In this document: one piece after another, positions 2 to 28,166 of the stretch | Layout: every line of letters starts with the position of its first letter | Position numbering within the stretch: the stretch's first letter is position 1 | DNA from: Gammaproteobacteria bacterium | Lineage (GTDB): Bacteria; Pseudomonadota; Gammaproteobacteria; UBA4575 | Assembly: GCA_965221955.1 (NCBI GenBank) | Contig: CBDCTA010000018.1 | Location: 64,001-128,000, forward strand | Length of the DNA stretch: 64,000 nucleotides | Direction: 5' to 3' | Notes under the pieces: generated by a model | What the model saw: only the letters and a program-made list of their open reading frames with translations | Database searches by the model: none | What the model was told of the DNA's origin: nothing | Made by a program: the position numbers and the translations under genes

Positions 2-760
2 GACCAGCTTAGCAAAAGAAAAATAAAACAACCCTTGTGCACTTGGAGTGAGTTATCTGAAATGTCTAATAGTAGCTATGTAGATGTGCAGTGTCACTCC
101 CTAACCCACTCTAGAGTATTCACAGCTTTACAATTGACTGATTTTATACACCCTAAATTTGATACATATTTTTACGGAAATATAAACATACCTATAGCTT
201 CAGACGATAATCCCATAAACCCAAATCGTCTTATAAAGTACGGGGATATCGTTTTTAAAAATGACTCAAGAATGAAGTGTACTAGACGTTTTAAAGAAAA
301 TGTCAATCTTTCTAAATATATGAGAGCGTATGTTAAAAAAAATGGTGATAAAGAATTTTTTAACAACCCCAAGTGGAGGAAAGAATTAAAAAATCATTAT
401 GAAAAATGGGACAAAAACAAGCTAGGAGAATTCGAAACCAAGGAAGAAATGATTTCTGCAGTTCACTATGAATTTATAACTTCAAAACAAATATTACAAG
501 AAAGACTTAATACACAAATTACACATTTCTGCTACCCGTGGTTTGAAAGTAGCACTCTTTCAGATCAAATTGCAGGAGAAACTGGATATGAACATTTGTA
601 TTATAGTATGAATATACCTTACGACTATGACAAAAGTATAAAGTCTCACATGAAACATACTCGGATCTCTGAAGAATACCTTCTCAGACTACCAGGCAAA
701 GGCAGAGTGTCATATTCTTCTGTATGGACAAAGAAAATCAAGAACTACATAGCACATTAG
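2..760 (+). CDS. Polysaccharide deacetylase (CE4/NodB-like), 5'-truncated by window edge
   Basis: Frame is open from base 2 (DQLSKRKIKQPLCTWSELSEM); LxWxELxEM, HSLTH metal motif and HFCYPW motif; long insertion between the motifs. Confidence 0.75.
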   Translation, partial: DQLSKRKIKQPLCTWSELSEMSNSSYVDVQCHSLTHSRVFTALQLTDFIHPKFDTYFYGNINIPIASDDNPINPNRLIKYGDIVFKNDSRMKCTRRFKENVNLSKYMRAYVKKNGDKEFFNNPKWRKELKNHYEKWDKNKLGEFETKEEMISAVHYEFITSKQILQERLNTQITHFCYPWFESSTLSDQIAGETGYEHLYYSMNIPYDYDKSIKSHMKHTRISEEYLLRLPGKGRVSYSSVWTKKIKNYIAH

Positions 761-1917
761 GCTAAACGTTTGTGATCTTCGAGCAACAAATCATAAACTT
801 TTTGAATTTGGCTAACGGTATGAGTTACCAAATAATTGCTCTTAAGCTCAATTAATGAATTACTACTTATTTTTTTAGCAAATTTTGCATTAGATAATAT
901 ACGGCATATTGCTTGAGCAATTTGCTCAGGCCTTTTCGGTGCAACTAATAAAGCAGTTCTTTCATGCTCTAATATTTCAGGAATTCCACCGACGCTAGTA
1001 GCAACAATTGGTGTTTGCATAGCCATTCCCTCTAATACTGATACCGGACAACCTTCAGAATGCGAACATATAGTTAGAACATCTAACAGAGATAATATTT
1101 CCAATACATTGTTGCAGTGACCTAGAAATATAATATTAGAAGATATATTTAATTTATGTGCCTTCTGCTCAAGCTCCTCACGCAAGTCTCCTTCACCGAC
1201 GATGACAAAACATACTTCAGGAATTTCTTGTAATACGATGTGTGCAGCATCTAAAAAATCAAAATGCCCTTTGATAGAATTTAATCTACCAACAATACCC
1301 ACTAATTTCTTTTCGACAGGCAAATCTAATGATTTAGAGATAGCTAGTTTAGTATCGGCATCGAACGGTTGAATACAATTTTCTGGGATTCCGTTATAGA
1401 TCACATCTGTTCGGTTCTTATTTAAATATCGTTCATTTACCATGAATTTTTTTACAGCTTTGGACACTGCTATTCCTTTAGCAGTTATAGATGAAAGAAT
1501 CCAATCAGCGATTCTTTGGTAAATAGGAATTTTACTATCAATCATATGCTCATGAACGATCACAGGTATGCGTAAAAATAAGCCCACTATTCTTCCAAAA
1601 TTTGTAGCGCCGTAACCATGACAATGTAATATTTTAATATTGTTACGACGTATAATACGCATCAAATCAAAAATAATTCTTATATCAAATTTATTTCGCC
1701 CTAAGTAATCTGCATTTATTTCATGCTCATCAAGCAATTTACTACCTTCATTTCGTCCGCGAAACACACACAAAAATAATTTATATTTAGTATTAGAAAA
1801 CTCCGGCCACCATGTCATTAAAACACGGGTTCCACCATGTATTGGCGAGCCCTTCATGCTAATTTTGTCGTATATATGTAATACGTGAATTTTTTCGCCT
1901 TGATTCATATCAGTCAT
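757..1917 (-). CDS. Glycosyltransferase family 4
   Basis: VGRLNSIKG, SHSEGCPVSVLEGMA (EX7E) and VGGIPEI motifs of GT-B/GT4. Confidence 0.9.
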   Translation of the reverse strand: MTDMNQGEKIHVLHIYDKISMKGSPIHGGTRVLMTWWPEFSNTKYKLFLCVFRGRNEGSKLLDEHEINADYLGRNKFDIRIIFDLMRIIRRNNIKILHCHGYGATNFGRIVGLFLRIPVIVHEHMIDSKIPIYQRIADWILSSITAKGIAVSKAVKKFMVNERYLNKNRTDVIYNGIPENCIQPFDADTKLAISKSLDLPVEKKLVGIVGRLNSIKGHFDFLDAAHIVLQEIPEVCFVIVGEGDLREELEQKAHKLNISSNIIFLGHCNNVLEILSLLDVLTICSHSEGCPVSVLEGMAMQTPIVATSVGGIPEILEHERTALLVAPKRPEQIAQAICRILSNAKFAKKISSNSLIELKSNYLVTHTVSQIQKVYDLLLEDHKRLA

Positions 1918-1986
1918 TTTATTAATGAGTACTTATAACCTGTAATGTTACAAGGAAATCAAGTTACTGAGAGAAAACTAAATTTG

Positions 1987-2514
1987 TTATCTTCTCGTAA
2001 AAATAACTTTCCCAGGATTGCCTTGCACAATCGAGTTTTCAGGAATCTTTCCAGAAACAACAGAATTTGGAGTTATAATGCTTCTGCTTCCTATCTCAGA
2101 ACCGTCTAAAATTACACACCCTGAGCTAATCCAAACATCATCACCAATCGTAATTCCTTTTGAAGTTTGCTGTTGCTTGCAGATTGGAATATCCAAGTGA
2201 TCATAACTATAGTTAATACTCACAATGGATGCATTAGGTCCGATCATACAATCATCACCGATTTTGATACCTTTTTTATGTGATGCGATAAAAGTATGTG
2301 CTGCGATAGCGACATTAGAACCTATTATTAATGGACCATCAGGCGCCTTGATTTTACAAAATGAGCTAATCACAGAACCTTTACCTATAGACAAGAAAGA
2401 AGTGAGTTCTACTTCTGATCGTGGACTAACCTTACATTTAAATTTAAGCCAACATTTTAACGTTACAAAAAACGGGGGCACAAAAAATCTGCGTAAAATT
2501 GTCGTAACATTCAT
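1987..2514 (-). CDS. Hexapeptide-repeat (left-handed beta-helix) acyltransferase
   Basis: Repeated IGxx hexapeptides (IGDDCMIGPN, IGDDVWISSGCVILDG) and C-terminal GNPGKVI. Confidence 0.88.
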   Translation of the reverse strand: MNVTTILRRFFVPPFFVTLKCWLKFKCKVSPRSEVELTSFLSIGKGSVISSFCKIKAPDGPLIIGSNVAIAAHTFIASHKKGIKIGDDCMIGPNASIVSINYSYDHLDIPICKQQQTSKGITIGDDVWISSGCVILDGSEIGSRSIITPNSVVSGKIPENSIVQGNPGKVIFTRR

Positions 2515-2519
2515 TAAAG

Positions 2520-2762
2520 TTAACTGCGTTCAGCAATAATACTTTTAATTTCATCCACGCTTAGCATGGACTGAATCTCTTTCATCGATAACTTTATTTT
2601 GTATTCATCCTCTATAGCTGTTACTAATTTAAGATGATTCATCGAATCCCATTGGTCAATATTATCTGGAGTATCTTGATCACTAATACTTCCTTCATCT
2701 ACACCAAATATCTCTGAAATTATTTGTTCAACCGATCTACTCATAGTTTCCCCAGCCTTCAT
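2520..2762 (-). CDS. Acyl/aminoacyl carrier protein (start may be ATG at 2744)
   Basis: Small acidic protein with WDSMNHL phosphopantetheine-attachment Ser motif. Confidence 0.85.
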   Translation of the reverse strand: MKAGETMSRSVEQIISEIFGVDEGSISDQDTPDNIDQWDSMNHLKLVTAIEDEYKIKLSMKEIQSMLSVDEIKSIIAERS

Positions 2763-3041
2763 TCATATTCATGTTGTATATAAATATTCTCATAAATTAC
2801 ATTCACAACCTTTTCATACAAATACTAAATCAACTTTAAATCCAAACCATAACTCACTGTAATATATTTATATTAAGTTTAGCCATAATAATATACTGGT
2901 AATTGTTATAAAAACTATCTTCCAAAACCTATTAAATAAACTTTTAATAAATTAATATTTTATTAGACCATGACCTAAAACAATGATATGAATCATATAC
3001 TAAAAGTAGATTGCTATTATGTGAATTAGTTAGACAGTTTC

Positions 3042-4019
3042 ATGAAAAAAGTTGTTGTTTTTGGAAACGGCAAAATAGCCGCCGAATGCTTAAAATTATT
3101 AACCGAAACTCAAGGAGTTGAGATCCGGTTAGTTTTATATAATCCAAACGATCCTTCACTTATAAGTCCAATTCGTACATTTTGTGAGAAGCACTCTATT
3201 CACTCAGAAGCTATTGGCTCAACTATTTTACCAAGCGTGACTGAACTTATTAGAGAAAAAAATCCGGATATTATTTTTAATATAAACAGTCACAACATAT
3301 TCGATAAAAAAATTCTTGATATACCTAAGATAGGCGCTATTAACTTTCACAATGGCCCTTTACCCAAATACAGAGGGCCAGGGTATGTAATTCCAAGTTG
3401 GGCAATATTCAATCAAGAGCATGAACATGGAGTAACTTGGCACTTTATGGATGAAGGAATTGATACGGGCGACATCATCGCACAAGATAAATTTTACCTA
3501 TCTAATAAAGAAACTGCATTAGAATTAAATTTCAAATGCATTACCGCAGGCATTAAGTTATTTGAAAAAAATATTGATGACATATTATCAGACAACTGTA
3601 ATCGAACTTCTCAAAAAGGACCTTCTTCTACATACTTTTCCTCTCAAATTCCTAATAATGGCTATATTGATTTTAATTGGCCATATCACAAGATTGATGC
3701 TTTCCTTAGAGCAACGGATTATAGGCCATATCAAAATCTATTTACGTATGCCAAAGTAAAATACAAAAACAATATATTTATAGTAAATACTGCATCGCTT
3801 CATAAACTAACCCATCACAACTATCAAAATGGTGAAATAATCAGCCTCTCTAGTAATTATTTACGTATCGCTGCAAATGATTCAATTTTAGACATAACAA
3901 AAGTTATGCATAAAGAAGACGATGAAATCTCTATTGAAAAACTTATTAAGGATTATCATATTTCCGAAGGAGATGTATTAAATTACAATTACTCAGATAA
4001 ATTCGAATTAGCATCATAG
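3042..4019 (+). CDS. N10-formyl-THF-dependent formyltransferase (Fmt/ArnA-like)
   Basis: INFHNGPLPKYRG and TWHFMDEGIDTGDII formyltransferase motifs, plus C-terminal Fmt-type domain. Confidence 0.88.
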   Translation: MKKVVVFGNGKIAAECLKLLTETQGVEIRLVLYNPNDPSLISPIRTFCEKHSIHSEAIGSTILPSVTELIREKNPDIIFNINSHNIFDKKILDIPKIGAINFHNGPLPKYRGPGYVIPSWAIFNQEHEHGVTWHFMDEGIDTGDIIAQDKFYLSNKETALELNFKCITAGIKLFEKNIDDILSDNCNRTSQKGPSSTYFSSQIPNNGYIDFNWPYHKIDAFLRATDYRPYQNLFTYAKVKYKNNIFIVNTASLHKLTHHNYQNGEIISLSSNYLRIAANDSILDITKVMHKEDDEISIEKLIKDYHISEGDVLNYNYSDKFELAS

Positions 4020-5564
4020 CTCCGCAAGTTTCTTCCGATCAATTTTGCCATTAAGATTCAATGGAAGTTTTGACATGAAATTAACATCTCTTGGCACCAT
4101 GTATGCAGGTAGTTTACCTGCCAAAAATTTTAACAATTGATCCGAATCAGCCTCCTCTCCCTCAATATACAATTTCAGATAAACTTTATCTTGATCATCT
4201 TTAGTTGGGACTACAGCCACGAGATTTACCTGAGTATACTCTCTTGTTAAGTGTTCAATCTCTTCCAACTCTATGCGGTGCCCGTCTATTTTTATTTGAA
4301 AATCTTTTCTACCACAATAAATATAATTTCCATGACTATTTATATAACATAAATCTCCAGTAAGATAAGCAATCTCATCAATCCCTAAAGTATTCGGTTT
4401 AATAAACACTTGCTTTGATTTTTCAGCATTATTCCAATAACTGTTCGTTACTTGATCACCCCATAAACATAATTCACCAATTTCTCCATTAGGAACATGA
4501 TTCAAATCATTATCTACAATTGCAGCATTAGTATTCTTAAACATTTTCCCAAACGTGAGCACTCCGTTTGATATATCTTCTGAAGAAATATTTATACTCC
4601 AGTCAAAGACGGTACATATGATAGTAGCTTCAGAAGGGCCATATGAATTATGTATAATAGAATTAGGCACGCATTTTGACCAACCTTCTACTAATCTGTG
4701 AATGAGTGATTCGCCCGCAAAAATACAATAACGCATCGCTTCTAGTCTTAACTCTGAAAAAAATCTCTCTATATATGACAAGACCGAAGGTACCATGAAC
4801 GCTACGGTAATATTATTCTCATCTAGTGTTTTTAAAATATTCAGATAAATAACACCTTTAGTTGGCACAATGTAACAGCATGCTCCTAAACAAAGTGGTG
4901 TAAAAAAAGAAACCACAGACATATCAAAACTTAATTGAAACATCTGCATAAACCGATCATTCTCATTAAAATCGTAATTGTTTTTATCTAACATTGTTAA
5001 CATGAAGCTATTAATATTTTCATGATAAATTGGAACACCTTTCGGCTTTCCCGTACTACCTGATGTGAACAATAAATAGAACATCTGATTCAAACTAACA
5101 TCGTCAGCGATGAGATCAAACTCACTCTCTTGCATCTCTTGTGTATAAAAAATGTTTAGCTCGTATGACGCATCACTATGTGCCTTAATCAAGGCATCAT
5201 GATACTTCGATGCAAGAACTAGCTTTAACTTAGTATCATTAATGATTGTTAAATTACGATCTGCAGGATTGTTTTCATTAATAGGCACATAGGCCGCACC
5301 CACTGCCAAAATAGCTATGATCGACGCATAGGTATACACATCATCCCCACTCAATACACCAATAATTTCTTCTTTATTGTAGCCACTTGCTACAATATTT
5401 TGCTTTATAGAATTAGCAATCCTAGTAAATTCTCTATAACTGTAATATTTCCCACGCGCATAAACCGCATGCTTGTCTGGACTTCTTTTACTATTCTCAA
5501 CTATTTTATTGATAATATAATTGGATGGCATTTTTGTATTACTTAAATCTATTATGAAGTGCAA
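4014..5564 (-). CDS. Stand-alone amino acid adenylation enzyme (DltA/NRPS A-domain-like); likely start ATG 5531
   Basis: A-domain core motifs YLLFTSGSTGKPKG, FDMSV, NSYGPSE, GELCLWG, YLTGDL, GRKDFQIKIDGHRIELEEIE, NGKIDR; no fused T or C domain. Confidence 0.9.
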   Translation of the reverse strand: MHFIIDLSNTKMPSNYIINKIVENSKRSPDKHAVYARGKYYSYREFTRIANSIKQNIVASGYNKEEIIGVLSGDDVYTYASIIAILAVGAAYVPINENNPADRNLTIINDTKLKLVLASKYHDALIKAHSDASYELNIFYTQEMQESEFDLIADDVSLNQMFYLLFTSGSTGKPKGVPIYHENINSFMLTMLDKNNYDFNENDRFMQMFQLSFDMSVVSFFTPLCLGACCYIVPTKGVIYLNILKTLDENNITVAFMVPSVLSYIERFFSELRLEAMRYCIFAGESLIHRLVEGWSKCVPNSIIHNSYGPSEATIICTVFDWSINISSEDISNGVLTFGKMFKNTNAAIVDNDLNHVPNGEIGELCLWGDQVTNSYWNNAEKSKQVFIKPNTLGIDEIAYLTGDLCYINSHGNYIYCGRKDFQIKIDGHRIELEEIEHLTREYTQVNLVAVVPTKDDQDKVYLKLYIEGEEADSDQLLKFLAGKLPAYMVPRDVNFMSKLPLNLNGKIDRKKLAEL

Positions 5565-5759
5565 TAATAGTGCATAAATACCTAAATTGTCTGTTTGTTC
5601 ATATTTATTATGAGATCATACGCACATAATAAATTTGTATCTTAATGCTGAGATTGAGACTTTTTGCAAAGCACTATTCATAAATTATAAGTATAGTATT
5701 TAATCACTTAGTAACACTGATATTTGCAGAAATCATCACTTCTACTGATAAATAAAAAA

Positions 5760-6758
5760 ATGGATAATTTTTGGGAAAATAGAAAAGTCTTGGTCACAGG
5801 TGCAGGAGGATTTACCGGCAGCAACTTATGCAACACTTTAGCAAGTAAAAATGCTGATGTTACTGCTTTTCTAAGAAAAAATGGTTCAAAACGCAATCTA
5901 GATTCAAAAATTAGAATTTATACAGGGGATCTCACTAATAGCTATGATTGCGATCAAGCTGCTCAGGGTATAGATACGATATTCAATATAGCTGCAATAT
6001 TCAGAAATGTTAAAGGGTCAGAACAACAGCTAAGAGATATCCACGTTCATGCTACTGAAAATCTAATGCGTGCTGCAAAAACAGCCGGCTGTCGTCGCTT
6101 CATTCACACCAGCACTATGGGCGTTCACGGACACGTTAAAAATGGCCCTGGTAACGAAGAAACAGAATTCTCACCTGGAGATGCTTACCAAGAGACAAAA
6201 GTAGAAGGTGAGTTATTAGCATTTAAATTAGCTAAAGAATTACCGATAGACCTATGTGTAATCAGACCGTGCGGAATCTATGGCCCAGGCGATACTCGTT
6301 TCCTTAAGTTAGTAAAGCCTATTAAAAAAGGACAATTCTTTATGATAGGAAGCGGTGAAACACACTATCATTTTGTCCATATAGATGATTTAGTAAATGG
6401 TTATTTATTAGCGGGCGAAAAAGAACATGCAATCGGTGAAGCATTTTTAATTGGCGGTGAAGAGGCACCTACTTTGAACGAACTCGCCAGAAAAATTGCT
6501 GAAATACAGAATGTGTCACCACCAAAATTTAAAATACCTGTATGGCCAATATATTACGCAGGCTGGTTGTGTGAAATTTTATTCGGCCTATTTAATATTG
6601 AACCCATTTTGCATCGCCGACGTGTAGCCTTTTTTACAAAAAATAGGCACTTCTCTATAAAAAAAGCACAAAATTTATTGGGCTACCAACCCGAGGTAAA
6701 TTTGGAAAAAGGGCTAAAGTCACTAATTGATTGGTATGAGAGTGAAGAACTAATTTAA
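5760..6758 (+). CDS. NAD-dependent epimerase/dehydratase (extended SDR)
   Basis: TGAGGFTG Rossmann motif, YQETK catalytic motif, RPCGIYGPGD; ATG 5760 preferred over the upstream TTG at 5724. Confidence 0.88.
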   Translation: MDNFWENRKVLVTGAGGFTGSNLCNTLASKNADVTAFLRKNGSKRNLDSKIRIYTGDLTNSYDCDQAAQGIDTIFNIAAIFRNVKGSEQQLRDIHVHATENLMRAAKTAGCRRFIHTSTMGVHGHVKNGPGNEETEFSPGDAYQETKVEGELLAFKLAKELPIDLCVIRPCGIYGPGDTRFLKLVKPIKKGQFFMIGSGETHYHFVHIDDLVNGYLLAGEKEHAIGEAFLIGGEEAPTLNELARKIAEIQNVSPPKFKIPVWPIYYAGWLCEILFGLFNIEPILHRRRVAFFTKNRHFSIKKAQNLLGYQPEVNLEKGLKSLIDWYESEELI

Positions 6759-6781
6759 GCTAGAGAACTATAGGGAAATTA

Positions 6782-8341
6782 CTAGGAAACTATATGCAAC
6801 TTTTTTGATATATTTTCTAACTGCACTTTCATTTGATTATCACTCCAGTTAAATTTATTAGCCATCTCTTTTGCAATTTTCTCGAGATTTTGTCTACCTA
6901 AATAACCTCGTTTAGCTAAATTATTTCTTCGCAAAACGTAATCTTCTAGATTAAATACCATCTCTGCTTCAATAGTATAAGAAATATGCTTATACATATT
7001 CTTCAAATAAATTGTGTTTATTTTATCTTGACTAATTATTGGCTGAAGACATAGATCATCAATATTTGAAAATATACTCTTATATTCTTGCAAAGAGTAA
7101 TTAGATATAGGTATTTTTTTAGCCTTATAATTAATACGATCAACGACCATATCAACTACTCGTGATGCTGTACTACGTGCAGTAGTATATTTTACTCCAA
7201 TTACCGAAATTAAATTATCAATGTTATCTACTCTAGCATGGTCAATTATATTAGTACGATGAGAACGTGAAGATCTATCATTAGCTGATGATTGTTCAGC
7301 TGGTGTAAAGCCTGAATATATATAGTTAACTTTATCCTGGCTTAAGTTTATTGAAGGATAGGCTTCGTTAATTTCATCCATAAACCCAGGTAGTTCAGAT
7401 GACACATCAGTATCCATTTCCTTGCTAATATCATGTTCAAAATGCGCTGTGCCAATCACAGTCTTATTTAGCCATGGGGTAAAAAAATACACTCGCTTAC
7501 TTTCACCGATCACCGCATCTGAGGCACGATTACTTTTAACACCAAAAGCAAAATCTTTCCTTATACTATCAATTACAATATTAAAGTTTTTCGTTAGCGG
7601 CTGAAAATTGTATTCATCAGTTCCAATACTAGATTTTAATAGCCTATAAGCCCATGGACCGGCAGCATTAATGATTTGCGAAGCTTTGATATCAAAATGA
7701 CGCCCTGTGACCATATCTTTGACATGTACACCTATAGATTTTTTGGAGGCAATTAATAGTTCATCAGCACGCAAATAATTTGCTAGACACAATCCCTGAC
7801 GATGAGCATCTTTTAACAGCTCTATATGTAATCGATCTGCATCAACTATTTGGCCATCGTACCAAACCGCACCACCTTTAATATTTTCACCATTTATTTC
7901 AGGTAATAACTGTTGGTAGTCGGCTTTAGAAATCAAATATCCATTAGGATAAGCTCTCTTTTTATTTTGCATGGCTGCAACTAAATTATGCATATTGATG
8001 GCCGCTCCTAGAGCTAGTGGCCCTCTAGATCCATATCCATAAGCAGGTAATATAAATTTAAGCGGTTTAATAAGCTTATTTGATATTTGTACCCACCTCT
8101 CACGTTCTTGAACTGACTCAAATACTCGTTTCAAATTGAGATGTTGGAAATAGCGAATTCCACCATGGATAATTTTTAAAGAATTGTGTGAAGTGCCGCT
8201 ACCAAAGTCATTAGCATCTATAAGACAAACTTTAAGTCCACGTAATACTGCATCTCGCGCAACAGAAATTCCATATATGCCCGCACCTATAACCAAAAGA
8301 TCAAATTGGTCATGCTCCAACTGATCAAGATTACGTTGCAT
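6782..8341 (-). CDS. FAD-dependent glycerol-3-phosphate dehydrogenase/oxidase-like protein
   Basis: IGAGIYG FAD motif, DFGSGTSHNSLKIIHGGIRY, INAAGPW, GVKYTTAR motifs typical of the GlpD/GlpA family. Confidence 0.82.
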   Translation of the reverse strand: MQRNLDQLEHDQFDLLVIGAGIYGISVARDAVLRGLKVCLIDANDFGSGTSHNSLKIIHGGIRYFQHLNLKRVFESVQERERWVQISNKLIKPLKFILPAYGYGSRGPLALGAAINMHNLVAAMQNKKRAYPNGYLISKADYQQLLPEINGENIKGGAVWYDGQIVDADRLHIELLKDAHRQGLCLANYLRADELLIASKKSIGVHVKDMVTGRHFDIKASQIINAAGPWAYRLLKSSIGTDEYNFQPLTKNFNIVIDSIRKDFAFGVKSNRASDAVIGESKRVYFFTPWLNKTVIGTAHFEHDISKEMDTDVSSELPGFMDEINEAYPSINLSQDKVNYIYSGFTPAEQSSANDRSSRSHRTNIIDHARVDNIDNLISVIGVKYTTARSTASRVVDMVVDRINYKAKKIPISNYSLQEYKSIFSNIDDLCLQPIISQDKINTIYLKNMYKHISYTIEAEMVFNLEDYVLRRNNLAKRGYLGRQNLEKIAKEMANKFNWSDNQMKVQLENISKKLHIVS

Positions 8342-8379
8342 AAAAATTTATAACATTAATCAATTTCTAAAAAAAATTG

Positions 8380-9141
8380 TTATTTTCGACAAAATGCCAT
8401 TAAGTGATGCCCGGTTCTACTAATTAAAGATTTTGGAAGCATATTATACGAGTCAACAAAAATTTTATTATATAAAAGTGCTTTTAAACCGCTGTGTACT
8501 TTTGTTGCTACCGGAAACCTTTCAGGAACTATTTCTACTGTAGAAAACAGTTTCAACATATTTTCAAACTCATTTATAGAGTACATGTAAAAAACTGGGG
8601 CATCTAAGTGATCAATTTTAACTTTCATTAATTTATGCATGAAATTTAACCAAGATTTACGATTTACAGTCATCAGTATCGCTTCACCACCAGGTTTAAG
8701 CACTCGGTTAATCTCATTAATCATTTTTTGTGGGTTAGGAGTAAAATGCAAAACTGTATGACAATAAACCATATCAAAACTATTATCAGGAAATTCCATT
8801 TTCTCCCCATCCATAACTTGGAAACTACCTTGCAATTTACGCATCGCAAAATTATTTTTTGCCAAATCGATGGAGTGAGCTGCAAGATCAATACCCGTTA
8901 CCTCCGCACCACCTTTTGCAAAACGTGTAAGATCATTTCCAGTACCACAGCCTACATCAAGAATTTTTTTGTCTTTATAACCAGAAAAGTTAACTACTTT
9001 GGGTAAATAATGGAGTTTTTCGAATCTGTATTCTTCAATTTCTTGAAAAAACTCTAATGTCCCTGCCGGGCTTTTAGCCACTTTCCAATCATGCACATGA
9101 TTGTTCCAGAACTCACGTACTTCCTCTTTAACCATGACCAC
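8380..9141 (-). CDS. Class I SAM-dependent methyltransferase
   Basis: ILDVGCGTG, FPDNSFDMV and RVLKPGG motifs. Confidence 0.9.
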   Translation of the reverse strand: MVMVKEEVREFWNNHVHDWKVAKSPAGTLEFFQEIEEYRFEKLHYLPKVVNFSGYKDKKILDVGCGTGNDLTRFAKGGAEVTGIDLAAHSIDLAKNNFAMRKLQGSFQVMDGEKMEFPDNSFDMVYCHTVLHFTPNPQKMINEINRVLKPGGEAILMTVNRKSWLNFMHKLMKVKIDHLDAPVFYMYSINEFENMLKLFSTVEIVPERFPVATKVHSGLKALLYNKIFVDSYNMLPKSLISRTGHHLMAFCRK

Positions 9142-9156
9142 TTGAATATATTAAAT

Positions 9157-10344
9157 TTATGAATGTTCTATCTGATCTATCGCAGCATAAAGCTTGCTCA
9201 CTTTATGCATGTAGATTTCATCAGAATATTTTATTTCTGCAAGCTGTTGAGCTGCTCGTGCCTTTTCATCACCCAACGCTGGATTCTTAATTAACTCCGT
9301 CATACCTTGATTTAAACCCTCTTTATTTGGTGGCACTAATATAGCAACCTTTTTATTTAACACCTGAGTATGAGTAAGTATATTGGTAGCAACAATAGGT
9401 TTTCCTGAGCGCAAATATCCATAAATCTTTAAAGGCGTATTCGTCCCTGTACATCTTGGTGAAACAATAATATCTGCCGATTGAATATAAGATGGTATTT
9501 CTGATGGGTGCACAGTGCCAGTGAACAAAATTGATTGATCAATACCTAAGCTTATAGCTAACTTTGTATAATTTTGAATTTGTTCATCACGACCGCCAAC
9601 TAAAATCAAAAAGGCGTGAGGATTCTTATCTAAGGTGCCATTGAATGCATTAAATAATATATCGATACCTTGATAAGCTTCAAATGTACCTGTATACAAA
9701 ATAATTTTTCTATCTTGTAAAGAGTAAAGCTCTCTTATATTTTTAACATTATTTGAAAAAACTTTACTATCATCAGCAGTATTTTCTATCAGCTCATGCG
9801 GTGTATTTAAATTAAAACTCTCGACTAAATTAGCCAGCTCAGGACATATAGTAATCACTGCGTCACAACTATTAAGTACTTTGCTTTCAAAATATTCAAA
9901 GAATTTTTTTAAAAAAATGAAATTGAATGCACCAAAGTTTTCCAACTGCTGTGGAAGACTACTATGCATATCATAAACATGCAGCATGTTATATTTTTTT
10001 GCAAAATACATAGCAAAGAATGCAGCTTCTTCATGAGAATGAATCACATCATATTTGTTTTTTTTGAGTAACTTTCTAGCAGTAAAATATAGACTAATAT
10101 CTAAAAATATTTTTTTCACAGATGGGCCTATTTTTACATCATTGATGATTCCGTAATTACTAGATCTTATAATTTTTAGGCCATCAAATTCGATATCCTC
10201 ACCAAATGGGTAAGTTACCATATCTACTTTAAATCCCATTTCACATAATGCTCGCACACGATGTAATACGCTGAAAGGAGTTCCACGCGCCCTGAAGTAA
10301 GGCTGTGGAGTTAGCATTAGGACTCGATTATTATTAGCAGGCAT
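9157..10344 (-). CDS. Glycosyltransferase family 4
   Basis: YTGTFEAYQGID, NTPLKIYGYLRSGKPIVAT GT-B C-terminal motifs. Confidence 0.85.
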   Translation of the reverse strand: MPANNNRVLMLTPQPYFRARGTPFSVLHRVRALCEMGFKVDMVTYPFGEDIEFDGLKIIRSSNYGIINDVKIGPSVKKIFLDISLYFTARKLLKKNKYDVIHSHEEAAFFAMYFAKKYNMLHVYDMHSSLPQQLENFGAFNFIFLKKFFEYFESKVLNSCDAVITICPELANLVESFNLNTPHELIENTADDSKVFSNNVKNIRELYSLQDRKIILYTGTFEAYQGIDILFNAFNGTLDKNPHAFLILVGGRDEQIQNYTKLAISLGIDQSILFTGTVHPSEIPSYIQSADIIVSPRCTGTNTPLKIYGYLRSGKPIVATNILTHTQVLNKKVAILVPPNKEGLNQGMTELIKNPALGDEKARAAQQLAEIKYSDEIYMHKVSKLYAAIDQIEHS

Positions 10345-10480
10345 GGAAAAATATTTTGTATCCGACTCAAAAAAATAGTGGTACCAGATAAATTGAAATA
10401 CGATAAACAGTGGTTAGCATAATATGCAAAGCTGATCGCTTTTACGGAACTGGACTACACGACTCGCAGACCCACTCAAT

Positions 10481-10508
10481 ATATAAAGTAGTAAATTTAC
10501 CTTTATAT
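10481..10508. promoter_or_regulatory. Imperfect palindrome in divergent intergenic region, candidate operator
   Basis: ATATAAAG-ta-GTAAATTTAC-CTTTATAT: 8-bp inverted arms enclosing a 10-bp palindrome. Confidence 0.3.
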
Positions 10509-10654
10509 GACAAATTATACAGTGACCATCATCAACATTCTCGCTATGCTTAACCTCTAATCAAGCAGCAAAATGTAAGAACAAAAACAATCACTTAATT
10601 CGACTAAATATCAGCCTCGCCCAAACTAGAACATTTCTCTTCGATAGCCTAATA

Positions 10655-11881
10655 ATGCCTTATTCACCTTTAGATAACTTTGAAGTTCGTGATCATAACC
10701 TTCTTATATCAGGCCTAAACATACGAGATTTAATAAAAAGAAATGTTCAAATTCCGGGTTTTATTTATTCTAAAAATATTATCGACAATAAGATTAAGTT
10801 GCTCAGAGACACTCTTCCATCTTCAATTAAAATTCATTATTCAGTTAAAGCCAACCCATTTGCAGATCTAATTTCGCACGTTAAACATCGTGTTGATGGC
10901 TTGGAGGTATCATCATTGGAAGAGATGCAGACCGCACTTGCAACTGGAATTGACAGTAAAGATATTTGTTTAACTGGCCCTGGGAAGAGTTATGAAGAGT
11001 TAGAAATTGCTATAAAAAACAATATCATCATCAGCGCTGAATCTAGTCTTGAATTATACAGACTAGACGAAATAGGCATGGAAAGAATGCTTAAACCTTC
11101 TGTTTTGATACGGATAAATCCTGATTTCACTCAAAAACGTGCAGGAATGAAAATGGCAAGTGGATCAAGTCAATTTGGAATTGACGCCGAAAAAATCCCA
11201 GAACTTTTAAAATGGATTAATGGATCTTGCATTAACCTACACGGCTTTCATGTTTATAGTGGATCTCAAATCCTTGATGCTGAAGCTATTAATTATTCAC
11301 AAAGGAAAACTTTTGAACTCGCATTAAATCTAGCTACATTGTGCAAAGAACCTATTAAAACTATCAATTTAGGCGGCGGGTTTGGCATTCCGTATTTTTC
11401 AAAACACACTTCTTTAGATATAAAATCTGTGGCAAGAAATATTGAATCCTTAATTCCCACGCTCAACACTGAAAACTTCAGGCAGCCAATCAATCTAATT
11501 ATAGAATTAGGGCGATTTATTGTGGGCGAGTCAGGTGTATATATATGCAAAGTAATTGATAAAAAAGAATCCAGAGGGAAAACTTATTTAGTAACGAATG
11601 GCGGTATGCATCACCAATTGGCAGCCTCGGGCAACCTAGGGCAAAAAAATAGAAAGAATTTTCCTATATATATTGCAAATAAAATTGACTCAAATGTGAG
11701 GGAAACAGTGAATGTAGTTGGAAAATTATGTACACCATTAGATATTCTTGGAGAAAATGTAGAATTGAGCCAAGCTGAAGTTGGGGACTATGTCGCAATC
11801 ATGCAATCTGGAGCATATGGTTATTCGGCAAGCCCAATAAATTTTTTAAGCCAACCGAAAGCATCTGAAATACTTGTCTAA
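10655..11881 (+). CDS. PLP-dependent decarboxylase (LysA/fold III), exosortase A system-associated type
   Basis: HYSVKANP PLP-lysine, HVYSGSQ, NLGGGFG, ELGRF, LCTPLD, GAYGYSASP; ASGNLGQKNRKNFP segment and context match the XrtA-associated subfamily. Confidence 0.85.
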   Translation: MPYSPLDNFEVRDHNLLISGLNIRDLIKRNVQIPGFIYSKNIIDNKIKLLRDTLPSSIKIHYSVKANPFADLISHVKHRVDGLEVSSLEEMQTALATGIDSKDICLTGPGKSYEELEIAIKNNIIISAESSLELYRLDEIGMERMLKPSVLIRINPDFTQKRAGMKMASGSSQFGIDAEKIPELLKWINGSCINLHGFHVYSGSQILDAEAINYSQRKTFELALNLATLCKEPIKTINLGGGFGIPYFSKHTSLDIKSVARNIESLIPTLNTENFRQPINLIIELGRFIVGESGVYICKVIDKKESRGKTYLVTNGGMHHQLAASGNLGQKNRKNFPIYIANKIDSNVRETVNVVGKLCTPLDILGENVELSQAEVGDYVAIMQSGAYGYSASPINFLSQPKASEILV

Positions 11882-11908
11882 AAAGATGAAAGCAATTACT
11901 TTTTATAC

Positions 11909-13885
11909 TTATAAATTTACTTGGACACCTTTAGGTATTTTATAAATATGGATAGCATCCTCGATCGAATTAAACTGATGATATTCTACTAGCATATCAT
12001 CAATTTTTTTGTATATAGGCGGAAGCGTTATTTTTTTACCAGGACCATAAATTACAACCCATCTCTCAAAATTTGAATCTGCAATCTTTGTTTTAAATGA
12101 ATCTTCTGTATAGAGCAAATCATACCCGCTCCAGATATCTCGCTTCCCGCCACATGCTGAACGACTTGTAAATGAATCGTGCGTGAGCGGCAAGTAAAAG
12201 TAAGCTCCTTGATGGTCTTTTATGTAGTAATCGATAACTGGAACAGCAGTAACTAATATACTGTTGGCCTGTCTACGCGAATTAATATATTCAGCAGCTG
12301 ATTGGAAATCTATGCGAGGGTAATAATGACGTGTACGAGGCCCATCGTAATCAAGTCGAAAATTAACCCTTTCTGAATCAATTTCTATTGCGTCTTTCGC
12401 AGAAAAATCATCAGAAATTAAAAAGAATAAACTTACGAGTATGATAAGGCTTGCGTTTTTTGACCACATCGAAAAACCAGCAGGTACCATACGAACGATT
12501 ACAATGGCACATACCGACAAAATAAGTGGGTATAGGTAATACGTATACCTTGAATCTACGTAAAATGTAGACATCATTGCAGTAATCATTACTAAAATTA
12601 ATATTATCCCTAGCAACCTATTAAACTTAACATCATTATCTCTCTTTGCATTGAATACTAATAAAAACGCTAATACAGCAGCAATGGATGCGAGAATTGT
12701 TTGATACGGCATGGCCGAATACCATGGTTTAAATATTCGAAAATAAACATCTGGATAACTAAACATTGAATTAATAACTTCTTTTATAGCCTGCACCAAT
12801 CCAGAGTTGCTTGACTGTATAAAAATATAAAAACCTAAGCCGACAAACCAAAAAATAATTGCCAAGCAATAAATAATAAAAGCACGACTATTTTCTTTAA
12901 ACCAAGCGAACATTGTGTTTTTACTTAACAGGTAAACCGCAACTAAACTTCCTAGGAAAAGAGCAAGCTGATTTGAGATAACAGCAATAATCGCGATTAT
13001 TAACCCAATCGTTGCTACTGGCTCCGCACCTTTAACTCTGTAAATTGAATATGCGATTAAACCTATTCCCCATACCCCAAGCACTAACGCTAATATTGGA
13101 AATAGAATAAAGTCCTCTGATAGAGCCAATATTCGCTCGGGGAAAAGCACAGGAAAGGTTGTCCCATTGGCTGCAGTACTTACGATATATTCAGGAGGTA
13201 AAAATTGACCAACACCTAAACGCCGAAACGGAATAATATGGGTTACAGTTATTAGTACTGCGATACCCAACCACGCAATGTAGTCATATATTTTAATAGA
13301 TTTTTTATTCAGAATTGGATTGAGTACCGCAAGTCCAAAACAAAATATTGCACCCGCATAAACAAACACAGACAAAAAAGCCAAGCCATAACACAACCAA
13401 GTATTAACTAATTCGCTTGGTTTATTTGCTTGAAGTACTAACCAAACCTGCCAAATTACAATAGTTTGAAATAAAGCATACATTCTCCCAAATCGTGAAA
13501 ACTCAATCTCCCATAACGAGAAGGCCAAAAAGAATATCCCAATTACTGCTGCAGACCATCCTCCGATTTTTCGACAAATCAAAAATATAGCTGGAAATGC
13601 CGCAATATTAGCAATAAGTGGAATTATTCGAATAGCAAGTTCAGGATCATTCAAATAAAGTCGAAGTGGTACTGTAAGATATTGTTGAAAAATCCCGCGA
13701 ATATAATAACCACCACATTCAAAGCGAGGTAAGTTTGTCCGAATAATATTTTCAATCGATGAAATAAAATAGTACTCATCAACAGCAACTGGCCATTTAC
13801 CTAGGCCTTTTAACCTTATAATTATCCCCAGTATTGAAATAACTACAGCGAGTAATATATATGGGTTTTTTGTGTTTGTTTTCAT
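11909..13885 (-). CDS. Polytopic membrane protein, GT-C fold glycosyltransferase-like (ArnT/PMT-like)
   Basis: Many hydrophobic helices, acidic DE pair after TM1 (VAVDEYY), RMYAL motif, soluble C-terminal domain. Confidence 0.6.
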   Translation of the reverse strand: MKTNTKNPYILLAVVISILGIIIRLKGLGKWPVAVDEYYFISSIENIIRTNLPRFECGGYYIRGIFQQYLTVPLRLYLNDPELAIRIIPLIANIAAFPAIFLICRKIGGWSAAVIGIFFLAFSLWEIEFSRFGRMYALFQTIVIWQVWLVLQANKPSELVNTWLCYGLAFLSVFVYAGAIFCFGLAVLNPILNKKSIKIYDYIAWLGIAVLITVTHIIPFRRLGVGQFLPPEYIVSTAANGTTFPVLFPERILALSEDFILFPILALVLGVWGIGLIAYSIYRVKGAEPVATIGLIIAIIAVISNQLALFLGSLVAVYLLSKNTMFAWFKENSRAFIIYCLAIIFWFVGLGFYIFIQSSNSGLVQAIKEVINSMFSYPDVYFRIFKPWYSAMPYQTILASIAAVLAFLLVFNAKRDNDVKFNRLLGIILILVMITAMMSTFYVDSRYTYYLYPLILSVCAIVIVRMVPAGFSMWSKNASLIILVSLFFLISDDFSAKDAIEIDSERVNFRLDYDGPRTRHYYPRIDFQSAAEYINSRRQANSILVTAVPVIDYYIKDHQGAYFYLPLTHDSFTSRSACGGKRDIWSGYDLLYTEDSFKTKIADSNFERWVVIYGPGKKITLPPIYKKIDDMLVEYHQFNSIEDAIHIYKIPKGVQVNL

Positions 13886-26150: not shown

Positions 26151-28166
26151 ATGACAATAAAAATAGGACTGGTTGGGGCAGGATATATCTGCGAATATCA
26201 CGTTAAAGCCATTGTAGCGAACCCTTCATTAAAATTGATAGGTGTAACCGATCTAGATTTCAATAAAGCTAAACTAATAGCTGACCAATACAATTGTCGT
26301 GCTTTTCAAACCTTAGAGGAAATGATCAGTAGTGGCGCTAAGTCTATACACGTTTTAACTCCTCCCAATTCACACATTGAGGTAGCAACTGAGGCAATGA
26401 AACTTGGTTGTGATGTATTAATCGAAAAACCCCTTTCCGAAAACCCTGAAGCCTGTAAATCATTAAATGATTTAGCAAAACAACTTGGTAAAAATGTGTG
26501 CGTGAATCACTCATTGTTATTTGACCCACAGATTATCAAAGCTAAAGAAGCCATAGATTCTGGAAAGATAGGTGACGTCATTTCCATAGACATACTAAGA
26601 AGCTCGGTCTATCCGACTTACTCAGGCGGAACATTACCTCCCCATTACAGAGACGGGGGGTATCCATTCAGAGATTTAGGAATTCACTGCTTATATCTGC
26701 TTGAACATTTCTTAGGAAGTATTATTGATGTGGATGCAAAGTGGCAATCTCTTGGAGGCGATAAAAACCTAGCTTTTGACGAATGGAGCGCCATGGTTGA
26801 ATGTGAAAACGGAATTGGAAAATTTCAACTAAGCTGGAATGTAAAGCCACTACAAAATTTAATGATCATTCAAGGTACGAAAGGAATTTTAAGAGTTGAC
26901 TCATTTTTAATGTTCAACTCCTCAAAAAAAGCATTGCCAGCTCCTAAAGTAGTCGAACGGATCGTGAACAACTATACGGATTCTTTACGACCAATATTCG
27001 AAATGCCGGTTAATGTGGTGAAATTCGCCACAGGTAAAATTGTCCCATATCAAGGGCTTACTAATTTAATAAATGAATTTTACTCTGCATTAGAGCACAA
27101 CACTCAAGTTCCTGTATCTATTGAACAAGCCATACCTTCAGTATATTGGGTTGAACATATTGCTAAACAAGCAGATCAAGAAGCTCTCGAATTTAAAAAA
27201 CGGTCAAGGAATTTACCCCCAGCAGATATACTTGTAACAGGTGGCACTGGTGGACTTGGCAGCAACATTGTACGGCATTTAATAAATGCCGGATATACTG
27301 TACGCGTTTTAGCGCGTTCATTACCAAAAACCACTATTGAAAATGTTCAATACATAACCGGTAGTTTGGGCAATCCTGAAATTGTTAACGATGCAGTTAA
27401 AGATGTGCGTTATATCATCCATGCTGGTGCAGCAATGCAAGGAGATGAAAATGAACATATATGCAGTACAGAAGTTGGAACAAAAAATATTATTACAGCG
27501 GCAAATAAATTTAATATTAAAAAAATAGTACACATCAGCTCTTTATCTGTTATTGACTGGGCTGGAAATGATATGCACAACGTCGATGAGACTGCCGATT
27601 ACGAACCCAACCCAACAGCAAGAGGCTATTACACTCAATACAAACTTAAAGCAGAACAACTAGTCTTAGATGCGGCTGAAAATGAACAAATAAATGCTGT
27701 AATTTTAAGACCGGGACAAATTTTTGGAGAAAAACTACCTTTAGTTACTGGCGCTGTCGCCCGTCAAGTCGGTAATAAGATGCTAGTTTTTGGAGATGGC
27801 GAAATACAATTACCTTTAATCTATATTGATGACGTTTCAGATGCAGTGCTCGCCGCAATAAATGAAAATTTACCCAATGGCGAAATCATACATTTAACCG
27901 ATTCTGCCACATACACCCAAAATCAAGTATTACAATTGACCCGCCCAGATAAAAAAATCATACGAATTCCCAGGAAACTTATGTTTATAATGGGAGGGTT
28001 CAGTGAAAAAATATTTAAGCTTTTAAAAAGACAGTCTCCTTTTTCTCGCTACCGCCTGGAATCTGCAATGCCTAGAATATCTTTCAAAAGTGATAAAGCA
28101 AAAATTAAATTAGAGTGGTCTCCAAAAATAGGTGTTGAAAACGGTATAAAGTTGAGCTCTAAATAA
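26151..28166 (+). CDS. Fusion of Gfo/Idh/MocA oxidoreductase and NAD-dependent epimerase/dehydratase
   Basis: N-half GLVGAGYI, EKPL, DLGIH; C-half VTGGTGGLG, YTQYK, LRPGQIFG. Confidence 0.85.
   Translation: MTIKIGLVGAGYICEYHVKAIVANPSLKLIGVTDLDFNKAKLIADQYNCRAFQTLEEMISSGAKSIHVLTPPNSHIEVATEAMKLGCDVLIEKPLSENPEACKSLNDLAKQLGKNVCVNHSLLFDPQIIKAKEAIDSGKIGDVISIDILRSSVYPTYSGGTLPPHYRDGGYPFRDLGIHCLYLLEHFLGSIIDVDAKWQSLGGDKNLAFDEWSAMVECENGIGKFQLSWNVKPLQNLMIIQGTKGILRVDSFLMFNSSKKALPAPKVVERIVNNYTDSLRPIFEMPVNVVKFATGKIVPYQGLTNLINEFYSALEHNTQVPVSIEQAIPSVYWVEHIAKQADQEALEFKKRSRNLPPADILVTGGTGGLGSNIVRHLINAGYTVRVLARSLPKTTIENVQYITGSLGNPEIVNDAVKDVRYIIHAGAAMQGDENEHICSTEVGTKNIITAANKFNIKKIVHISSLSVIDWAGNDMHNVDETADYEPNPTARGYYTQYKLKAEQLVLDAAENEQINAVILRPGQIFGEKLPLVTGAVARQVGNKMLVFGDGEIQLPLIYIDDVSDAVLAAINENLPNGEIIHLTDSATYTQNQVLQLTRPDKKIIRIPRKLMFIMGGFSEKIFKLLKRQSPFSRYRLESAMPRISFKSDKAKIKLEWSPKIGVENGIKLSSK

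Follow-up and report, generated by a model that had tools for sequence, protein, structure and literature searches.

The window analysed here is a 64,000-nucleotide stretch of DNA from a gammaproteobacterium of the UBA4575 lineage (contig CBDCTA010000018.1, positions 64,001 to 128,000). Near its start, a stand-alone adenylation (A) domain of the nonribosomal peptide synthetase (NRPS) type lies beside genes for a small carrier protein, a left-handed beta-helix (LbH) acyltransferase and a formyltransferase (FT), all within an XrtA-type exopolysaccharide (EPS) locus. The A domain and carrier resemble the DltA/DltC pair, and no membrane-bound O-acyltransferase (MBOAT) like DltB is found. The question is therefore by what route an amino acid loaded by this pair could reach a polysaccharide. 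We propose that it would pass from the A domain to the carrier and from there to the soluble LbH protein, with no need for an MBOAT, and we put the probability of this core mechanism at about 0.55. The genes in question are as follows.

2..760, plus strand: PgaB/IcaB-like polysaccharide deacetylase, C-terminal part (TIGR03938 PgaB, E 1.4e-17; Polysacc_deac_1)
757..1917, minus strand: GT4 glycosyltransferase, 386 aa (Pfam Glycos_transf_1, E 3.5e-37)
1987..2514, minus strand: LbH acyltransferase, 175 aa (Pfam Hexapep, E 1.3e-17)
2520..2762, minus strand: carrier protein, 80 aa (PP-binding, E 7.9e-5, 23.3 bits against a cut-off of 20.8)
2763..3041, no strand: divergent intergenic region between the carrier operon and FT
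3042..4019, plus strand: formyltransferase, 325 aa, N and C domains (Formyl_trans_N, E 7.3e-18; Formyl_trans_C, E 2e-7)
4014..5564, minus strand: stand-alone NRPS-type A domain, 516 aa (AMP-binding, E 1.8e-63, plus AMP-binding_C)

An earlier note on this DNA listed the five genes from the GT4 to the A domain and named their domains. The open reading frames (ORFs) are where it placed them, and the Pfam matches agree. It also remarked that the stop of the FT gene overlaps the A-domain gene. The overlap is there (6 nt), with the correction that the two genes are on opposite strands and meet at convergent 3' ends. FT converges on the A-domain gene and diverges from the carrier operon, so that the five genes make up three transcription units and not one. 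Within the carrier operon, the carrier gene ends 5 nt before the start of the LbH gene, and the GT4 gene (757-1917) lies downstream of LbH after a 69-nt gap. A scan of positions 600-6000 returned 24 promoter-like sites, with 29 expected, and 3 terminators, with 2.3 expected. The A-domain start as listed (TTG at 5564) needs revision: alignments with homologues begin at residues 12-17, and the ATG at 5531 is the likely translation start.

A Dlt-like pair of A domain and carrier

In NCBIfam the A domain scores 313.7 bits against TIGR01733 (amino acid adenylation), just under the cut-off of 317.4. It falls far short of the cut-offs of the DltA models (TIGR01734, 282.3 bits against 559.85; NF003417, 292 against 476), and is therefore DltA-like rather than a DltA equivalog. 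Against TIGR03098, the XrtA-associated ligase, it scores 192 bits (cut-off 592). The DltA-like FDMSV motif pointed out previously is present. D214 and K507, the equivalents of Asp235 and Lys517 (mapped by hand from the core-motif alignment), are invariant in 30/30 aligned family members. Among solved structures, NRPS A domains and DltA are the closest; AlmE (structure 4oxi) matches with E 2.7e-46.

The ten residues of the substrate pocket, mapped by hand from motif positions with no comparison with a reference set, are DMVSIASIIK in the window and DFMSICAVYK in the orthologue from G013, another genome of the same genus. They differ at six positions, so the two species probably load different amino acids. 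The window residues also depart from the family consensus. A basic diamino acid is disfavoured as substrate because D214 is the only acidic residue in the pocket.

The A domain was found in 1 of 401 genomes of a phylum sample (the window's own genome), in 2 of 56 genomes of the order, and in G013 alone among the 14 other genomes of the genus. In the search of relatives, 8 of 41 passed E<=1e-40. Six of these lie within open frames of 988-4297 aa (NRPS megasynthases), and the sole orthologue left was that of G013. Numerous stand-alone proteins, about 500 aa long and 37-50% identical, emerged from a protein search; none of them is functionally named.

Loci for comparison were collected in two ways. 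A contig scan with generic NRPS core motifs, taken from the A-domain alignment, gave 79 loci, in which the only family member was L001 (40% identity); the others were NRPS A domains, 24-36% identical. A second scan, of metagenome contigs, used a DNA pattern built on the family-specific motif DRFLQMFELTFD and returned 80 loci. These, together with L001 and L090 (the G013 locus), form the set of 82 related A-domain loci used below.

A carrier gene was seen in 62 of the 82 loci, and in 29 of the 30 where both flanks extend at least 1.5 kb. This linkage supports the suggestion that A domain and carrier are a loading pair of the Dlt type. The phosphopantetheine-attachment motif of the carrier (W38 D39 S40) is invariant in 8/8 sequences, and the window genome has one phosphopantetheinyl transferase, of the ACPS type. 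The best solved relative of the carrier is GmACP3 (2lml, E 9.4e-9), the title of which, as it appears in a reference entry of PMC4847154, assigns it a putative part in the biosynthesis of lipopolysaccharide.

A soluble acyltransferase in place of the MBOAT

The 82 loci differ in the acyltransferase that accompanies the A domain. A DltB-like MBOAT (TIGR04091, E 1.5e-51, under the cut-off) is encoded in 37, and an LbH protein in 7, to which the window is added. No locus has both. Neither was seen in 38 loci, mostly on short contigs.

A midpoint-rooted FastTree phylogeny took in the 66 A domains for which 420 or more residues were aligned, and left out 17 partial sequences, L102 and L114 among them. 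The LbH-linked A domains form one clade (10/66 tips, SH-like support 0.90). The LbH gene is visible in 8 of these 10 tips, and the other two (L130 and L169) are on contigs of about 2.9 kb, which stop short of where it would be. Together, the single clade and the mutual exclusion indicate that the membrane acyltransferase of a Dlt-like loading pair gave way to a soluble one, and did so once. This agrees with the earlier proposal that the LbH protein stands in for the MBOAT.

The same proposal relied on the lack of an MBOAT or Condensation (C) domain in the window, and this holds for the whole genome. In the 2.69-Mb assembly (29 contigs, 96.6% complete) there were 0 matches to MBOAT (PF03062) at E<=0.01 and 0 to Condensation (PF00668), so that no such partner lies just outside the window. 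The control genomes, Bacillus subtilis among others for MBOAT, responded to both. MBOAT was also not found in G013. No DltD was seen, and no member of the LpxL-type lipid A late acyltransferases, to which AlmG belongs, was present among the Pfam and NCBIfam matches of the ORFs at 2-13885. The module encodes a single acyltransferase-like protein, LbH.

The wider Dlt-like family (L091-L170, mostly metagenomic) has a recognizable organization of its own, in which the A domain is followed by a carrier and a DltB-like MBOAT (for example L148:6696-8147, L091:6459-7118 and L097:8978-10417). Common companions are a 219-aa GNAT protein, an uncharacterized protein of about 480 aa, and GDSL-type or LysM proteins; with the MBOAT, the first two occur in 27 and 22 loci and GDSL-type proteins in 12. 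These loci often adjoin Wzt/ABC-2 O-antigen exporters and DegT aminotransferases. The pocket residues across the family fall into a few sharply distinct groups.

The LbH protein and its carrier

The association of LbH with a carrier is close. The two genes adjoin in 8/8 of the A-domain/LbH loci, and in five (L090, L109, L110, L138, L152) the stop codon of the carrier gene overlaps the LbH start by 4 nt. It also extends beyond A domains. All 15 examined members of the LbH subfamily are encoded beside a carrier gene, with loaders of three types: A domain, FkbH and acyl-AMP ligase. This adjacency, kept with three loader types, argues that LbH takes its acyl donor from the carrier.

The FkbH type occurs in G001, a complete genome of the same genus, where FkbH takes the place of both FT and the A domain (order SDR, FkbH, carrier, LbH; L234:11174-14812, G001:C1; SDR, short-chain dehydrogenase/reductase). 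Its FkbH scores 301 bits against TIGR01686 (cut-off 147), and its carrier matches PP-binding with E 6.4e-7. FkbH enzymes load a glyceryl unit onto a carrier, which suggests a glyceryl decoration in G001 in place of an aminoacyl one.

The acyl-AMP ligase type is a paralogous module found in six genomes of the genus, with the order LbH, carrier, FabG-like reductase and 450-aa AMP ligase (L247-L252, from G012:C97, G003:C86, G006:C85, G008:C20, G009:C67 and G013:C12, respectively; for example L250:3-3838). The LbH protein is here 177 aa long, and the carrier (98-104 aa) has a G-x-D-S motif and no Pfam match. The ligase resembles aryl/acyl-CoA ligases rather than amino acid A domains. The surroundings are housekeeping genes (htpG, trmD, rplS) outside EPS loci. 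G013 carries this module as a second LbH copy, in which the reductase and ligase are in pieces and no FT follows.

The sequence of LbH sets it apart from the characterized models. It scores 35.9 bits against LpxD (TIGR01853, cut-off 242.5) and 30.9 against LpxA (NF003657, cut-off 226), and is a member of neither. It is likewise under the cut-offs of the O-acetyltransferase models WbbJ (69.7 bits against 243), WcaF (54.6 against 192) and Maa (49.7 against 314). The motif Y102-x-Y104-D105 is invariant, and Y102 aligns with a histidine of the best solved relative, 3ect, which we take to be the catalytic histidine of the acetyl-CoA class. The G001 orthologue has no histidine at all. A basic C-terminus, I-F-x-R-R, is also conserved in the subfamily.

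There are 289 homologues of LbH at E<=1e-25, annotated merely as 'acyltransferase', and the 120 listed are 57-82% identical. LbH is thus far better conserved than the A domain (37-50%), which fits a constant acceptor and phosphopantetheine arm with a variable cargo.

The module as a unit within the genus

The G013 locus is collinear with the window, and the carrier, FT and A domain have diverged more than the flanking genes. At the protein level LbH is 77% identical, the carrier 59%, FT 51% and the A domain 50%. The flanking genes, described below, give 83% (SDR), 63% (FAD enzyme), 84% (methyltransferase, MT), 76% (GT4 at 9157-10344) and 76% (decarboxylase). At the DNA level, the stretch from the 5' part of the carrier gene through FT and the A domain is 0.46-0.66 identical, and most flanks are at about 0.7-0.8.

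In G013 the genes for LbH, carrier, FT and A domain lie between a flippase-like gene and the SDR gene. In G012 these two neighbours are 347 nt apart, on a 4.2-kb contig, and none of the four genes is between them. The four therefore come and go together, and LbH-carrier-FT-A is a four-gene insertion or deletion inside the XrtA EPS locus. The suggestion that the five listed genes would co-occur thus stands for this block, which two species of the genus have and a third lacks as a whole, and fails for the GT4.

The GT4 at 757-1917 had been counted as a member of the module. It is not found at that position in any of the 8 related LbH loci, where the gene after LbH is a flippase-like gene (G013), a Wzx gene (G001) or other genes. 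We therefore rejected it as a conserved partner and regard it as strain-specific. It belongs to an insert which replaces the flippase-like gene of G013 and which encodes a methyltransferase, Wzx, a FemAB-like protein, a glutamine cyclotransferase, the deacetylase and the GT4. The deacetylase (397 aa in full) begins 434 nt before the window (full ORF L226:567-1760), and no homologue of its 2..760 part was found in G013. An unusual neighbour in an EPS locus is the gene for the glutamine cyclotransferase (Glu_cyclase_2, E 7.6e-89), which lies just upstream of the window at L211:16640-17431.

The formyltransferase

Both FT domains score above the Pfam cut-offs (Formyl_trans_N 65.4 bits, Formyl_trans_C 31.6 bits), and the N-x-H...D catalytic triad (N101, H103 and D141, aligned to the ArnA motif) is invariant in 20/20 sequences. 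The protein is no equivalog of ArnA (130.8 bits against 777), Fmt (98.6 against 201.5) or PRK06988 (137.2 against 316).

The A domains that are linked to FT (window, L090, L130 and L169) form a sub-clade of 4 tips with support of 0.99, and all four have the 6-nt convergent overlap between the FT and A-domain genes. In two of the paralogous modules (L250 and L251, from G008 and G009) FT is also tail-to-tail with the AMP ligase. The FkbH variant of G001, the cargo of which has no amine, has no FT, and this favours a link between FT and an amine. The match lists of FT, A domain and LbH have contigs of exactly equal size in common (4888, 570337 and 5835), as do those of FT and A domain (3252, 18240, 36818 and 81375), which suggests further co-located sets. 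The linkage of FT to the module is real and clade-restricted.

No DegT-type aminotransferase is encoded in the window or in the 18 kb upstream; the two strong matches in the genome are on other contigs. This, and the lack of FT in the FkbH variant, makes it likely that the transferred amino acid is N-formylated, either on the carrier or after transfer. The formyltransferase domain of LgrA acts on a carrier-bound amino acid and is a precedent for the first of these, although FT resembles it weakly (E 7e-7).

The surrounding XrtA locus

The description of the setting as an XrtA-type EPS locus is borne out by markers above their cut-offs in the window: the exosortase model TIGR02602 (152 bits against 105.6), the priming transferase TIGR03013 (554.6 against 393), TIGR03007 (318 against 279), TIGR03027 (190 against 180) and TIGR03099 (509 against 478). 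The XrtA model itself, TIGR03109, reaches 172.8 bits and is under its cut-off of 208. The window encodes a chain-length determinant, an export protein and PrsT, and a PEP-CTERM protein is encoded upstream of it. XrtA markers, some under cut-off, are present in 4/4 of the long LbH-type loci: PrsK/PrsR and TIGR03013 in L109, a TIGR03108-like amidotransferase in L152, TIGR03007 in L133, and a TIGR03108-like amidotransferase, TIGR03015 and TIGR03007 in L001.

The genes next to the A domain are the following.

5724..6758, plus strand: extended SDR, HpnA-like; in L109, L133, L152, L114, G001 and G012
6782..8341, minus strand: FAD oxidoreductase, glycerol-3-phosphate dehydrogenase/oxidase-like; always adjoins the SDR
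8380..9141, minus strand: S-adenosylmethionine (SAM)-dependent methyltransferase; 84% identical in G013, 76% in G001
9157..10344, minus strand: GT4, best match TIGR04063 of the XrtA-system family (under cut-off); the conserved glycosyltransferase of the cassette
10655..11881, plus strand: XrtA-associated decarboxylase dependent on pyridoxal phosphate (PLP) (TIGR03099, 509 bits)
11909..13885, minus strand: ArnT/PMT_2-like GT-C glycosyltransferase, 658 aa, 12 predicted transmembrane segments

The GT4 at 9157-10344, the GlpD-like FAD enzyme and the HpnA-like SDR are conserved with the trio of A domain, carrier and LbH in other phyla, and the SDR is a regular companion of LbH-type modules. Often a flippase-like TIGR00374 protein and a DUF5060 glycosidase-like protein are also there. 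The FAD oxidoreductase is present in 4 of 56 genomes of the family. The SDR was considered as a reductase of the carrier thioester and rejected, since its similarity is generic to extended SDRs and G012 has the SDR without a carrier.

The trio is further accompanied by a pair of ArnC-like synthases for polyprenyl-phosphate sugars (NF007986, E up to 7.9e-58, under cut-off). The protein encoded at 11909-13885 has a DEYY motif after the first transmembrane segment (located by hydropathy) and matches no family over threshold (PMT_2, E 0.0019). In the Atlas, 19 of its 30 matches (scores 1.00-0.99) fall into ArnT/PMT_2 clusters, and it has a 32% identical homologue in G013. Such a GT-C enzyme would use a polyprenyl-phosphate sugar as donor. 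With ArnC-like and ArnT-like genes together, the locus holds parts of an Arn/Gtr-like branch of periplasmic glycosylation.

The TIGR03099 decarboxylase stands alone in the window genome and in G013, without its usual ligase, carrier and hydrolases, and no match to the TIGR03098 ligase in the window genome is over the cut-off. G001 has the full TIGR03098 ligase/TIGR03099/carrier/TIGR03100/TIGR03101 set (L234:18569-19999, L235:161-6301). The ligase is missing exactly in the two genomes that have the Dlt-like A domain.

Some other genes of these loci may be mentioned. In L109 a sulfotransferase gene (L109:10632-11636) lies between LbH and the A domain with an adenylylsulfate (APS) kinase near (L109:1-541), which hints that the polymer of that locus is sulfated. 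A 671-aa protein encoded at window positions 26151-28166 joins a Gfo/Idh/MocA dehydrogenase (UDP-GlcNAc 3-dehydrogenase-like) to an HpnA-like SDR; the locus yielded no sugar aminotransferase. Further acyl- or aminoacyl-transfer chemistry could be performed by a second adenylate-forming enzyme of the EPS locus, which is PaaK/F390-synthetase-like, and by two Acetyltransf_6 proteins of the FemAB-like kind (window 34657-36003 and 37320-38432, and L211:15548-16639).

Alternative explanations

Several observations weigh against the proposed route. The nearest solved relatives of FT are sugar N-formyltransferases (E 1e-21 to 1e-18), namely the ArnA formyltransferase domain (E 1.1e-21), GDP-perosamine N-formyltransferase (1.6e-20) and QdtF-like enzymes, and not the LgrA domain. 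FT was not found in six of the eight related A-domain/LbH loci long enough to judge (L001, L109, L110, L133, L138, L152). Its homologue in G008 and G009 (38-39% identical) flanks the paralogous module, where the loader is aryl/acyl-CoA-ligase-like, and FT therefore need not act on an alpha-amine. The co-location suggested by contigs of equal size is indirect evidence. Finally, the joint gain, loss and divergence of the contiguous LbH-carrier-FT-A block may reflect a single recombination tract and not a common function.

One alternative is that FT is an ordinary sugar N-formyltransferase of an Arn-like branch and the A-carrier-LbH trio is independent of it. FT would then formylate a nucleotide-linked or de-N-acetylated amino sugar, which an ArnC-like GT2 enzyme would load onto polyprenyl phosphate. 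The ArnC-like and ArnT-like genes of the locus fit this arrangement, as do the three polysaccharide deacetylase genes in or beside the window. On the other hand, the DegT-type aminotransferase is not there to be found in the window or upstream region, and FT behaves as part of the block: it is gained and lost with LbH, carrier and A domain, it has diverged with the A domain and carrier (50-59% identity) and not with the flanks (63-84%), and it is always tail-to-tail with the adenylating enzyme in both types of module. We consider this alternative possible, although doubtful.

It is also conceivable that the carrier-bound unit is remodelled by the FAD oxidoreductase, SDR, MT and/or PLP decarboxylase before transfer by LbH. 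The pathways to amino- and hydroxymalonyl-ACP in polyketide synthesis are a parallel for such remodelling on a carrier. Enzymes that use FAD, NAD and SAM adjoin the carrier here, the decarboxylase has lost its usual ligase and carrier, and, at the same position beside the same SDR-FAD-MT genes, one species of the genus has the A domain and another has FkbH. Against this, G012 keeps SDR, FAD enzyme and MT by the flippase-like gene on a contig that lacks carrier, LbH and loader, so these enzymes work without the carrier system; and the FAD enzyme is GlpD/GlpO-like, not acyl-CoA-dehydrogenase-like. Remodelling on the carrier is improbable.

There are reservations about LbH too. By sequence it is nearest to acetyl-CoA-dependent O-acetyltransferases (Maa, LacA, NeuO, WbbJ, WcaF), the donor and acceptor proposed for it are predicted from linkage and sequence, and the acceptor need not be an EPS sugar, given the paralogous LbH modules outside EPS loci. 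Least probable of all, however, is that LbH is a plain acetyl-CoA-dependent EPS O-acetyltransferase while another enzyme passes the carrier cargo to lipid, lipid A or protein (which an ArnC/ArnT-like route could equally serve), because this leaves unexplained the adjacent carrier in 15/15 cases with three kinds of loader and overlapping genes in five, the missing catalytic histidine, the mutual exclusion with MBOAT, and the fact that no other acyltransferase is conserved with the pair.

Comparison with known systems

The first two steps of the proposed route are those of DltA and DltC, with a stand-alone A domain that has the Asp235 and Lys517 equivalents and a small dedicated carrier. The module differs from Dlt in using a soluble LbH protein for transfer and having no MBOAT, in lacking a DltA equivalog, and in belonging to an XrtA EPS locus of Gram-negative type. 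It shares with NRPS systems an A domain of the same Asp235/Lys517 kind, and the window genome lacks their Condensation domain.

The earlier note described the gene set as a cytoplasmic, MBOAT-free alternative to Dlt. An MBOAT-free relative of Dlt is already known in AlmEFG of Vibrio cholerae: as described in part of PMC4278540, AlmE loads glycine onto AlmF and the non-MBOAT enzyme AlmG transfers it to lipid A. AlmEFG and the module have in common an A-domain ligase, a carrier and a non-MBOAT transferase. The transferase AlmG is of the LpxL type, the target is lipid A, and there is no formyltransferase. In the O-antigen cluster of V. cholerae O1, an adenylating enzyme and a carrier (RfbK/RfbL) supply a 2,4-dihydroxybutanoic acid substituent, according to a section of PMC12208996. 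This again places an adenylating enzyme and a carrier in a polysaccharide cluster; the ligase is of the acyl-CoA-ligase type and the substrate is not an amino acid.

With LpxA and LpxD, LbH shares the left-handed beta-helix fold and the proposed carrier-bound donor; the sequence similarity is marginal, and the 175 aa of LbH leave it without an extra domain. FT has the two-domain architecture and triad of ArnA, and the locus has ArnC- and ArnT-like genes; unlike Arn, it has no ArnB-type aminotransferase, and FT does not come near the ArnA equivalog cut-off. In open-access text, a limited search returned nothing relevant on polysaccharide aminoacylation by A domain, carrier and LbH, or on FkbH in polysaccharide loci. 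What is new is the histidine-less LbH as transfer enzyme, the XrtA EPS setting, the exchangeable loaders and the recurrent free-standing FT.

Proposed mechanism and its meaning

In the mechanism that we favour, the A domain would activate an alpha-amino acid with ATP and attach it as a thioester to the phosphopantetheine arm of the carrier, as DltA does with DltC. The soluble LbH protein would then take the aminoacyl group off the carrier and place it, on the cytoplasmic side, on a sugar intermediate of the XrtA EPS, most likely making an ester on a hydroxyl. FT would be an optional tailoring enzyme of one sub-clade and would N-formylate an amino group of the product, either while it is on the carrier or once it has been transferred. 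The decorated sugar would probably follow an Arn/Gtr-like route, by way of the upstream ArnC-like synthases and then the ArnT-like GT-C enzyme (11909-13885). The domain content, the linkage and the absence of MBOAT and C domains are observations; the chemical steps, the amino acid, the acceptor and the order of formylation are predictions from them.

The observations may be joined in a more ambitious scheme, which we think unlikely. In it, carrier and LbH would form a plug-and-play unit for glycan acylation, with the loader exchanged between close relatives (A domain for an amino acid, FkbH for a glyceryl unit, acyl-AMP ligase for a carboxylic acid) to give species-specific polymer chemistry. 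In the window species, the amino acid would be N-formylated on the carrier, esterified by the histidine-less LbH onto a polyprenyl-phosphate sugar, and delivered to the periplasmic XrtA EPS by the ArnT-like GT-C enzyme. Decoration with N-formyl-aminoacyl groups would then have a complete lipid-carrier route that is MBOAT-free, and the scheme could also account for substituents such as the N-formyl-L-alanyl group of a Vibrio anguillarum O-antigen, which is reported in a passage of PMC10059132.

Amino acid esters on surface polymers set their charge, the sensitivity of the cell to phages and antimicrobial peptides, and the properties of biofilms. The known routes to them depend on an MBOAT in the membrane (Dlt) or on an acyltransferase of lipid A (AlmG). 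If the proposal is right, a carrier-fed soluble LbH protein would be a third solution, and one with exchangeable loaders. FT would be the free-standing equivalent of an NRPS formylation domain, should its substrate be the loaded carrier. The proposal would also give a function to a conserved and so far unnamed LbH family, and provide a first way into some of the accessory chemistry of XrtA/PEP-CTERM systems, which is poorly understood.

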